From IMG/VR virus record IMGVR_UViG_3300012347_000308, positions 1 to 25,463 of that record: a stretch of 25,463 bases of DNA; one strand, given 5' to 3'. Source of the stretch: a virus. Taxonomy: Duplodnaviria > Caudoviricetes. Below, piece by piece: positions 23,632 through 25,463 of the stretch. Under the pieces are notes generated by a model. The model had not been told where the DNA came from, made no database searches, and saw only the letters and a list, made by a program, of their open reading frames with translations. Position 1 is the first letter of the stretch. Each line of letters begins with the position of its first letter. The position numbers and the translations under genes are program-made.

Positions 23632-23768
23632 TTGTGGTTTGCGCGCACTACCATTAGCGCAAAAACCACAATTGAGGTGAATACCCTTGTTAGGCAGACG
23701 GCTTCGCCGCAGGATGCAAGAACAAATCATTTTGCCTAACATCGTCTTCACCCTCAATTTGCGGTTTG
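23632..23768 (+). repeat. Circularly permuted attC-like element flanked by 10-bp direct repeats
   Basis: Right arm (GGTGAAT-ACCCTT-GTTAGGC, ending 23695) precedes left arm (GCCTAAC-ATCGT-CTTCACCC, from 23734); TTG(T/C)GGTTTG at 23632-41 and 23759-68. Confidence 0.7.
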
Positions 23769-24388
23769 AACAAATTCCCTTGCGCGGTATGCCTTGCAAG
23801 GCGCTCCTGCATCGCGGCAAAATAGTCAGCGTCCAATTCCGAAGCAACGAGGTCAAACCCAAGGTCATGGCAAGCAATGGCAATGCTACCAGATCCAAGG
23901 TGAGTGTCAAGTATAAGGTCGCCTGGCTTCGCATAGTTGGAAAGAAGCCAACGATATAAGGCAACAGGCTTTTGCGTTGGGTGTATTCTTTCGTTATCAG
24001 CACCAATAAAACCATCATATCGAATTGGTGCCTTTTTTATAACATTAAGAAAATTAGTCCAAGCAAGCTCACCATCAGAAAAAGAAAGATTTTTATCGCG
24101 CTGTTTATCCCAAAAAATCCAACCGCCAACAGAAGGTAAATGGAAATAATTTCCACCCCAAACGATTTGATATTTTGAAACGCGACTCAATTCAAAGAAA
24201 TAATCAGATTTAGGTACAAAAGAATCCCAACTTTTTGATTTATCCCAAAGTTGGTTTTTCCCTTTCCCCATTTTCATTTCGCTTGCACCAATCCCATACG
24301 GCGGATCAACAATAGCCAAATCAAAATGCTTATCAGGATACTGACGCATCAGATCCATGCAATCCATGTTTCGCAAATCAAGCATCAT
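23690..24388 (-). CDS. DNA amino-methyltransferase, beta class (probably N6-adenine)
   Basis: DPPY (motif IV) precedes HPTQKPVALY and ILDTHLGSGS (motif I); start at ATG 24388 or 24385 after AAAGGA; the stop lies in the GTTA core box. Confidence 0.92.
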   Translation of the reverse strand: MMLDLRNMDCMDLMRQYPDKHFDLAIVDPPYGIGASEMKMGKGKNQLWDKSKSWDSFVPKSDYFFELSRVSKYQIVWGGNYFHLPSVGGWIFWDKQRDKNLSFSDGELAWTNFLNVIKKAPIRYDGFIGADNERIHPTQKPVALYRWLLSNYAKPGDLILDTHLGSGSIAIACHDLGFDLVASELDADYFAAMQERLARHTAQGNLFKPQIEGEDDVRQNDLFLHPAAKPSA

Positions 24389-24409
24389 ATTCCTTTCAAG
24401 TTTTAGGTT

Positions 24410-24487
24410 GCCTAACAACCCCATTCCACCCGCATCGCGCCTGTTGTTATGCCGTGAGCGCGAGCAGGTGAATAGGGGAGGTTAGGT
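24410..24487 (+). repeat. attC-like site 1 (78 bp)
   Basis: GCCTAAC-6-ATTCCACC...GGTGAAT-7-GTTAGGT; imperfect palindrome with an extra C and an extra A in the left arm. Confidence 0.85.
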
Positions 24488-24664
24488 GGACGCCTCCGGC
24501 GCGGGATTAGCTCTTTCGCAAAAAATATCAAAGCATTTATCAGAGCAAGAAGACATCAAGGCATGCCCAAAGAAAAAACTTTTAGTGTCATCTCCAATTG
24601 TTGCACCACAAATTGCGCAAGGTGCGTGCATTAGGTTATCAAAAATCTTGATACTTGATTTCAT
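24482..24664 (-). CDS. Cys-rich small protein (CxxC...CxxxC), cassette-borne
   Basis: AAAGGAG RBS; TAA stop inside the attC core box. Confidence 0.7.
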   Translation of the reverse strand: MKSSIKIFDNLMHAPCAICGATIGDDTKSFFFGHALMSSCSDKCFDIFCERANPAPEAST

Positions 24665-24821
24665 ACCGAACTCCTTTGTACACTTCAGTAGATTGTTTTG
24701 GTGCTATCAATTTTGTAGTCCCTGTATGCTTCCCATTCTTGAAGAATATAGATATATTTTTATCTACTATATTCGTTATCAAGAAATAGTCAGTTCCTGT
24801 TATTCTTGTTTTTTGTATCAC
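24639..24821 (-). CDS. Hypothetical protein, cassette-borne
   Basis: Fills the gap between its neighbours; GTG start with weak RBS. Confidence 0.4.
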   Translation of the reverse strand: MIQKTRITGTDYFLITNIVDKNISIFFKNGKHTGTTKLIAPKQSTEVYKGVRYEIKYQDF

Positions 24822-24832
24822 TTAATCACCAT

Positions 24833-25018
24833 TCATCTAGAGGAAAAGTGGTGTATCGCTATTATTTTATTTGCAAATACAAAAGAATTATCAACATCAT
24901 CATAATTGTTTTCTTTAATGAAATTATCGGCATCATCTTCATCATCAAAAGAATGAAGATATGCTTTGTCATTTATATATGAACCAGATACACCTTTAAT
25001 CTTCAATACAAAAACCAT
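24833..25018 (-). CDS. Small acidic hypothetical protein, cassette-borne
   Basis: AGGGG RBS before ATG 25018; FDDEDDADNFI. Confidence 0.6.
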   Translation of the reverse strand: MVFVLKIKGVSGSYINDKAYLHSFDDEDDADNFIKENNYDDVDNSFVFANKIIAIHHFSSR

Positions 25019-25053
25019 ATACACACCCCTGCGTTAATGTTTTAACTCAATTC

Positions 25054-25112
25054 ACCTAACGTCCCCATTCCACCCACATGCTACGCAGTGGGTGAATATG
25101 GCGGGGTTAGGG
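25054..25112 (+). repeat. attC-like site 2 (59 bp)
   Basis: ACCTAAC-6-ATTCCACC-CACATGC-TAC-GCAGTG-GGTGAAT-8-GTTAGGG. Confidence 0.85.
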
Positions 25113-25124
25113 GCATCTGCGAGG

Positions 25125-25307
25125 CTATTGTTCGTTATTTTCAAGTTCACAAGTGTCTGGGATCTCAAAATTGCCGTTGAAATCTCTAACAAGGATTTTC
25201 TTGCGGTCATTGCAGTGAGCGTAAGGATATGTGTCCGTGTCCAATGAATCCGTAAAGAATGGACATTTATCACAGCGATGTACTACGATTGCGACTTTCT
25301 TTGCCAT
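25125..25307 (-). CDS. Small four-Cys phage protein, cassette-borne (60 aa)
   Basis: AAAGGA RBS; CDKCPF...C...IPDTCEL. Confidence 0.75.
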   Translation of the reverse strand: MAKKVAIVVHRCDKCPFFTDSLDTDTYPYAHCNDRKKILVRDFNGNFEIPDTCELENNEQ

Positions 25308-25338
25308 CTCGTTCCTTTCTGTTATTGGTTTTAATCAT

Positions 25339-25416
25339 CCCTAACATCCGCATCCCACCCACATCCCGCCTGTTTTGATACCGTGCGCGGGAGTGGGTGA
25401 ATAGCGTTGGTTAGGC
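25339..25416 (+). repeat. attC-like site 3 (78 bp)
   Basis: CCCTAAC-6-ATCCCACC-CACATCCCGC...GCGGGAGTG-GGTGAAT-7-GTTAGGC; loop similar to site 1. Confidence 0.85.
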
Positions 25417-25463
25417 GCACGCCTGCGGCGGGGCAAAAAGGTTGGCGCATCTACAAAACACGC
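25411..25463 (-). CDS. Possible 3' end of the next cassette gene (partial)
   Basis: ...VFCRCANLFAPPQACA* with TAA in the core box; only 17 codons are visible. Confidence 0.4.
   Translation of the reverse strand, partial: VFCRCANLFAPPQACA

Follow-up and report, generated by a model that had tools for sequence, protein, structure and literature searches.

A conserved, covarying hairpin with a bulged T beside the R' box of attC sites in a phage array and in Fibrobacterota integrons

Introduction

The canonical attC site of integrons consists of R and L boxes, an unpaired central spacer, the extrahelical bases G16 and T23/24 and a variable terminal structure. Hairpins that carry a GNA triloop on one strand, with longer stems, serve as promoters of N4-type virion RNA polymerases. 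The stability of GNA loops is known from d(GNA) mini-hairpins (PMC3201870), and for short attC sites an apex with a GAA-type triloop has been described (PMC2727003); the "mini-hairpin" of bioRxiv 2024.04.09.588808 is also the attC apex. Integrase-less clusters of attC sites (CALINs) accompanied by DNA methyltransferases are known from phages (Qi et al. 2023, PMC9892861).

The stretch of DNA analysed here, called the window, was 25,463 bases long and represented one entire virus contig. Like the phage CALINs, it contained a cluster of attC sites with a DNA methyltransferase; no integrase was seen in the contig, which ends inside the array. Its three full sites agreed with integron attC sites (aadA7/aadA1, VCR) in the R''/R' and L boxes and in two extrahelical bases on the expected arm. 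Reversed genes, an attI-like end site and a hairpin in the flank were features of the window in contrast to the phage CALINs; the available text of PMC9892861 mentions none of the three for integrase-less arrays, except attI in a Shewanella prophage. The hairpin element reproduced the attC module of bulged T and apex but, unlike any feature of attC, lay beyond the site, on the 3' side of R' (top strand), and formed part of the next cassette. It shared the loop and the C:G closing pair with the d(GNA) mini-hairpins but kept a fixed register relative to a recombination site and bore a bulged T. In contrast to the N4-type promoters, no such polymerase was seen in the contig, and the element occurred in bacterial chromosomes. 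No published report of a hairpin outside R' was found in a search that covered subscription journals thinly, and the supplements of PMC5737381 may hold related motifs. The available portions of PMC2727003, PMC5027507, PMC3053210, PMC5737091, PMC7439510, PMC2095811, PMC5737381 and PMC8876359 describe no structure 3' of R'. The element has the appearance of an additional arm, not described before, of the site at which integrons recombine.

Results

Organization of the array at the contig end

The terminase, portal and coat genes of the contig were P22-like and were all encoded on its minus strand. The right end carried three full attC-type sites and one end site, and the contig terminated inside the array. 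A tblastn search of the contig with integrases gave no credible match (best E 0.017), the terminase query found no related viral locus, and nothing matching the site of the window was found in annotated phages and plasmids. All of the cargo genes (a DNA methyltransferase and small unfamiliar ORFs) were on the minus strand, reversed relative to attC. The features were as follows.

23666-23695, plus strand: attI-like array end site with crossover G 23689 and without an upstream R''-L'' arm (aligned by eye)
23697-23710, minus strand: Element 1, G[A]CGGC-TTC-GCCG-C on the plus strand; on the bottom strand the loop is C(GAA)G and a T is bulged
23690-24388, minus strand: N6/N4 DNA methyltransferase (Pfam PF01555, PHROG 67), reversed relative to attC
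23734-23764, minus strand: inverted attI-like copy within the methyltransferase tail, recurring in phage arrays L277 and L275
24410-24487, plus strand: attC site, R'' 24410-24416, R' 24481-24487, top-strand extrahelical C 17/18 and A 25
24489-24502, minus strand: Element 2, G[A]CGCC-TCC-GGCG-C on the plus strand, bottom-strand loop GGA
24482-25024, minus strand: cassette 2 cargo, small reversed ORFs 24482-24664, 24639-24821 and 24833-25024
25054-25112, plus strand: short attC site, whose own apex C[A]TGC-TAC-GCA-G is the same module as the flank element
25114-25123, minus strand: Element 3, C[A]TC-TGC-GA-G on the plus strand, outside the ORF, whose stop is at 25125
25125-25307, minus strand: cassette 3 cargo, a 60-aa reversed ORF with no family match in Pfam or PHROG
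25339-25416, plus strand: attC site
25418-25431, minus strand: Element 4, C[A]CGCC-TGC-GGCG-G on the plus strand, bottom-strand loop GCA; the contig end cuts the cassette

The methyltransferase was 67% identical to a cassette gene of phage L277, and its stop codon was the TAA in the complement of R'. Pfam and PHROG searches gave no match for the ORFs of cassette 2, of which ORF 24482-24664 terminated in PAPEAST at R'. The site at 23689 is not a full attC: no R''-L'' arm was found upstream of L'-R', and it is an attI-like end site instead. It aligned by eye with the end sites of phage arrays L121, L205 and L275, and also with intI-adjacent sites (G175, G002) and an array-head site (G001). Its interpretation as a circularly permuted empty cassette was dropped in favour of an attI-like site followed by an inverted attI-like copy. 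The two copies faced each other 36 nt apart (23666-23764), and the methyltransferase tail read through the inverted one. A separate hairpin was found immediately upstream of the attI-like site (23632-23670), and a similar stretch was present in a related contig from run X1. The attI-like sites of G002 and G001 (L304 4900-4924, L305 9342-9366) contained TTATCCACA, which we take to be the DnaA-box consensus.

Polarity of the sites and position of the crossover

The sites at 24410, 25054 and 25339 fitted the patterns RYYYAAC for R'' and GTTRRRY for R', and their L boxes were complementary. In all three, an unpaired C (17/18) and an unpaired A (25), 6 or 7 bp apart, were located on the left arm of the plus strand. 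The attC family to which they belong had 6/7-nt spacers with the last extrahelical base at position 25 in 117 of 120 sites, and it was found beside an integron integrase in G108, where the array adjoins intI. Shared cassettes stood behind different sites, with the exchange at G/TT. For the 163-aa cassette (L122, L170, L204) and the methyltransferase cassette (L277), the right-hand site stayed alike and the left-hand site differed. Contigs of related genomes (runs X1 and X2 of one study; other strains or organisms) departed from the window at 24491, 25102 and 25105 and continued with other cassettes or sites. The extrahelical bases, the travelling right-hand attC and the contig departures together identify the G of GTTAGG on the plus strand as the crossover, as the initial annotation had assumed, the minus strand as the recombinogenic strand and the genes as reversed. 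Determination of polarity from the R''/R' match was dropped since the test is symmetric; what fixes it is the arm bearing the extrahelical bases, together with the identity of the attC that accompanies a gene.

Reversed genes frequently stopped at the TAA within R'. Arrays of the phage type with this gene orientation relative to attC were also found in L121, L122, L170, L198, L204, L205, L275, L277 and L374; they had a run resembling a ribosome site directly within R'', and their stops frequently fell at the R' TAA. L122 was near a small terminase gene, similar to the array of the window. In L123 (minus 4075) and L256, a sequence beginning with GTGCG was inserted in R', presumably resembling the start of a group II intron.

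Structure of the element in the window

Four hairpins began at 23699, 24491, 25116 and 25420, each 10 nt after the crossover G (23689, 24481, 25106 and 25410), and their minus-strand loops were GAA, GGA, GCA and GCA, in agreement with the initial annotation. That annotation was right about the hairpin and missed the bulged T and an extra pair, the most informative part of the element. It had counted one compensatory pair change in the window; in fact, there were two, as a further pair joins the base preceding the conserved A to the one that follows the stem. This extra pair, X:X', was G:C at sites 1 and 2 and C:G at sites 3 and 4, and the A (T on the minus strand) stayed bulged. On the top strand, the full element ran from the 7-nt R' through a single base, X, A, a 2-4-bp stem, the loop TNC and the partner stem to X', which was usually followed by GG or GC. 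The proposal that it lies outside the standard attC held, since it sits 3' of R' and not between R'' and R', and the GNA loop was indeed on the recombinogenic bottom strand. TC-TGC-GA had been described as a reduced copy; the 2-bp form was present, but it was a recurring variant (L147, L174, L196, L218) rather than a product of decay.

The pattern for the 4-bp form gave 3 matches in the window and none in 100 shuffles. All four loops of the window were C(GNA)G closed by C:G on a stem of at least 2 bp, and 52 of 54 elements elsewhere closed with C:G. The folding energy was not above chance (z -1.3 to +0.8, 8 of 8 strands folded), and the folding model gave both strands about equal energy. A search with Rfam covariance models gave two chance-level miRNA matches, neither of which fell on an element. 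The evidence for the element is its position and covariation, not folding energy.

Conservation and covariation

Conservation in larger sets, on which the initial proposal depended, was borne out and was accompanied by covariation. The attC sites were gathered with patterns that leave the flank untouched (the blind set). Among the matches listed, the strict element was present in 65 of 99 unique blind flanks of the window's attC family and absent from 34, compared with 0 of 62 in a second attC family, although the sequences are related and these counts overstate their independence. The covariation control set had given 5 hits in 65, comprising two misfiled family members and three perfect empty palindromes; for the comparison of 65/99 with 0/62, those loci were refiled and the bulged A was required. 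In a wider set of 121 flanks, which takes in loci fetched by the hairpin itself, a triloop stem was found at +10 in 81, compared with a mean of 5.0 and a maximum of 17 in 1000 shuffles. All 71 stems of at least 3 bp at +10 in this wider set had a TNC top-strand loop, and the bulged A was present in 81 of 83. Stems of 2-4 bp began at +10 in 52 of 54, and since stems of differing length share this start, the anchor is the crossover and not the loop.

There were 27 distinct element types with 13 different stems. X and X' paired in 25 of the 27 types (mean 11.4 and maximum 20 in 10,000 permutations), alternating among G:C, C:G and A:T over four stem backgrounds. A double change of the outer stem pair was also found within one 520-bp cassette (L122 versus L170 and L204), the copies of which were otherwise near-identical. 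In alignments A2 and A3, the rows were picked for carrying the hairpin, so that the 100% pairing there is by construction.

On the R'' side, no paired hairpin was conserved (6 TNC and 6 GNA in 161 upstream flanks). The 148 top-strand leaders contained 160 TNC hairpins compared with 3 GNA hairpins; 63 further TNC hairpins lay deeper in the leaders at no fixed position. The leaders of G108, G003 and G002 (e.g. L304 4924-5038) were long and non-coding and held more ACGGCC-TNC-GGCCGT hairpins, all GNA on the bottom strand. Three hairpin-less leader types were reused on different genes (L121/L122/L277/L243; L198/L374/L184; L185/L195/L358). An A at position 10 was seen in 33 of 47 non-hairpin flanks, many of which were decayed hairpins, compared with 15 of 65 controls. 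Empty cassettes of about 40 nt, consisting of the hairpin and then a decayed attC, were noted at L205 1372-1460, L374 3383-3460 and L122 1-75. In L152, L169 and L186, 29-nt perfect palindromes (R'-stem-TNC-stem-R'') followed a second-family attC as minimal empty cassettes.

Distribution in chromosomes, phages and plasmids

The strict pattern was found in 7 of 12 genomes of one order, that of G001, and reversed-pattern controls gave none; two of those genomes carry the name Fibrobacterota. Integron integrases above the TIGR02249 cut-off were also present in 7 of the 12 genomes of this order. The element stood at +10 in 23 of 27 sites of a 49-kb array in G003 (two others shifted and two variants), in 13 of 16 sites of the main G108 array, and in 2 of 6 sites plus the first cassette of G001. 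In chromosomal Fibrobacterota arrays, the genes ran forward and mostly started 60-270 nt downstream, leaving the element in a non-coding leader. Among the matches listed, the reversed-gene arrays of the blind set comprised 24 cassettes, 11 with the element and 13 without it. One cassette of viral contig L380 carried it. In the sul3-type class 1 integron, it opened a short remnant behind the qac cassette, one of four leaders of the array, and this stretch was present at an identity of at least 99% in 899 plasmid records. The element also points to a probable phage host in Fibrobacterota.

The clear sites of Vibrio, Shewanella, TJE1 and Thiodictyon recovered by the finders, which are few as controls, were without the element; for TJE1 this was the one site clearly recovered. 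With a loose pattern, the 201 genomes of the phylum of G001 were at about control level, G108 excepted. The strict pattern occurred in 1 of 151 genomes in the neighbourhood of G004 (G004 itself) and in 1 of 101 in that of G003 (G003 itself, one contig), and the element-bearing contigs of G003 and G004 may be misbinned or transferred. Contig C26 of G003 was a 49-kb Fibrobacterota-type array in a Flavobacteriales bin whose 100 relatives all lacked the motif, and it is possibly misbinned. A half-site scan of viral contigs was set aside because nearly all of its 120 hits were due to chance; one had an upstream CCTAAC.

The integron integrases of the order (L278, L341-L350) were about 400-450 aa long, with one ORF of 498, and had an N-terminal extension of ~110 aa, for which no Pfam match above threshold was found. 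The Thiodictyon integrase had a similar extension. A link between the element and this extension was unsupported: there were only two close relatives, and the one clear attC of Thiodictyon, with its long integrase, lacked the element.

The R stem and the mirror of the L arm

Within a cassette, R'' was paired with the start of the same cassette at positions 7, 8 and 9 in 91, 98 and 16% of 44 hairpin cassettes, compared with 71, 76 and 43% of 21 family cassettes without the hairpin and 88, 40 and 40% of 25 control cassettes. From the drop at position 9, the R stem of hairpin cassettes ends where the first pair of the hairpin begins. In modelled circle junctions, both helices stood side by side in two 4-bp cases, and in a 2-bp case the hairpin formed only on the top strand. 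In the array context, positions 7-8 were frequently mismatched, so a clean stack would be expected only in the circle.

Counted on the bottom strand from the C of AAC, the bulged T was base ten, and its distance to the crossover G was 9 nt. In canonical attC sites, nine base pairs separate the beginning of L'' from the conserved T at position 23 (PMC5027507), and four attC sites of L377 showed the same 9-bp spacing. Because the two spacings are equal, the element mirrors the L arm on the R side. The T of the window's own family is at 25 and not 23, and an exact mirror requires the second C to be unpaired, as it is in one of two pairings.

Discussion

The element is well supported as a structure and may have a function in recombination. 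We tentatively favour, at somewhat short of even confidence, an accessory arm that would lengthen the R side of the site, be read by the R-box integrase monomer and raise or tune recombination. The grounds for this reading are the position, the covariation, the strand, the 8-bp adjacency to the R stem, the occurrence in integrons with IntI and the mirror of canonical attC. The 5' end of a cassette would carry the arm. When the bottom strand is single-stranded in the cell, attC would fold and its R box would pair over 8 bp, and the GNA mini-hairpin would fold beside the R box and stack on it. The R-box monomer would then face a helix of up to about 13 bp, in which the bulged T mirrors the extrahelical T of the L arm; contact with the arm may hold the cutting monomer firm, with recombination raised or tuned as a result. 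According to PMC7439510, the stem that surrounds the second extrahelical base has an influence on recombination. The phage array would probably use the integrase of its host. As the hairpin is the sole part of the upstream site that the cassette itself supplies, a cassette could thereby influence its own excision. The strict element in the first cassettes beside intI in G175, G108 and G002, and variants in G359 and G360, count for an accessory arm. Against it stand the absence of the element from about a third of the family's flanks, the hairpins without fixed position deeper in the leaders, the mismatches at positions 7-8 in arrays, the dependence of the exact mirror on one of two pairings and one hairpin-less cassette found behind different attC sites in L121 and L277. 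Hairpin-less cassettes move, and more than half of the reversed-gene cassettes listed lack the element, so it is accessory at most and not essential. A bolder version, which we consider doubtful, is that the substrate is two-armed and near-symmetric, with the stacked hairpin of the next cassette and its second bulged T read by the cutting monomer, so that this cassette would set its own mobility; the arm would have been copied from the attC apex, and its 24-nt frame, put in reverse on phage genes, would expose a step in cassette genesis.

The main rival, rather unlikely in our view, is that the element is only a relic or tool of cassette building: the first ~24 bases would have been copied as a block from the distal half of an older attC (L''-stem-loop-L'), and the junction with new DNA would be marked or primed by the hairpin, which would play no part in recombination. 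Such an origin is consistent with X[A]stem-TNC-stem'X' being the apex of the short attC here and with the loops TTC or TAC in 14 of 16 classed apices, although the flank loops were mostly TCC and TGC and the apex loops mostly TTC. One leader type shared the bases surrounding the loop and the next GG with the aadA-type attC of L377, and the +10 register results exactly when an L'' arm loses its first extrahelical base. Identical leader types of 24 nt recurred on unrelated genes in both orientations, with gene-specific sequence starting right after the hairpin, and hairpin-less leader types were reused as well. However, the compensatory change inside one cassette lineage argues that selection on the structure persists after construction, and the R stem was tuned to end at the hairpin. 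An origin of this kind and a present function, such as that of the accessory arm, are compatible with each other.

A purely protective role appears improbable. In such a role, a stable GNA hairpin would eliminate the single-stranded overhang next to the base of attC and so reduce opening of the site by SSB or nucleases, while the integrase would not touch the hairpin. A short single-stranded overhang is required for SSB to open attC (PMC5737091), two stem pairs are sufficient for a stable C(GNA)G loop (PMC3201870), and the excess of TNC over GNA hairpins in the 148 top-strand leaders places extra GNA hairpins along the bottom strand. Such a shield, however, has no need for a bulged T at a fixed register, and the opening by SSB is five times more efficient 3' to 5' (PMC5737091), which we read as the R'' side, where no hairpin was conserved.

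Even less probable is an inhibitory arm, in which the bulged T would enter the pocket that stops the L-box monomer from cutting, damp cleavage at R and stabilize large arrays. In VchIntIA, it is the non-attacking subunits that have their T pocket filled, and they bind T12'' in cis via P232, H240 and H241 (PMC3053210), and T12'' is said to prevent L-box attack (PMC5027507). The filled pocket suggests a brake over a boost and counts against an arm that promotes cleavage. The proline was kept in two of three aligned Fibrobacterota integrases, and the His-His pair read Trp-His or Trp-Arg. On the other hand, hairpin cassettes came first at attI, were duplicated in G108 and were shuffled among phages.

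A constraint at the RNA or protein level (a 5' leader hairpin or a conserved C-terminal peptide) or a double-stranded protein site is largely refuted and very improbable: the element overlapped the gene end in three of four window cassettes and preceded a ribosome site in L380, but its polarity relative to attC was constant for forward and reversed genes, it was non-coding in cassette 3 and in chromosomal arrays, the tails varied (KPSA, EAST, QACA, EGSP, KLCA), the 13 different stems speak against a site read by sequence, Rfam gave no relevant match, and the similar tails, which the initial annotation had attributed to the hairpin, are by-products, as the Fibrobacterota chromosomal copies lie in non-coding leaders of forward genes.

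By definition, attC ends at R', and the flanks are left out when the site is cloned for assays. A conserved, covarying structure outside R' would widen this definition and would let a cassette act on the site of its neighbour, and the reuse of the element on unrelated genes and on reversed ones bears on how cassettes are made.
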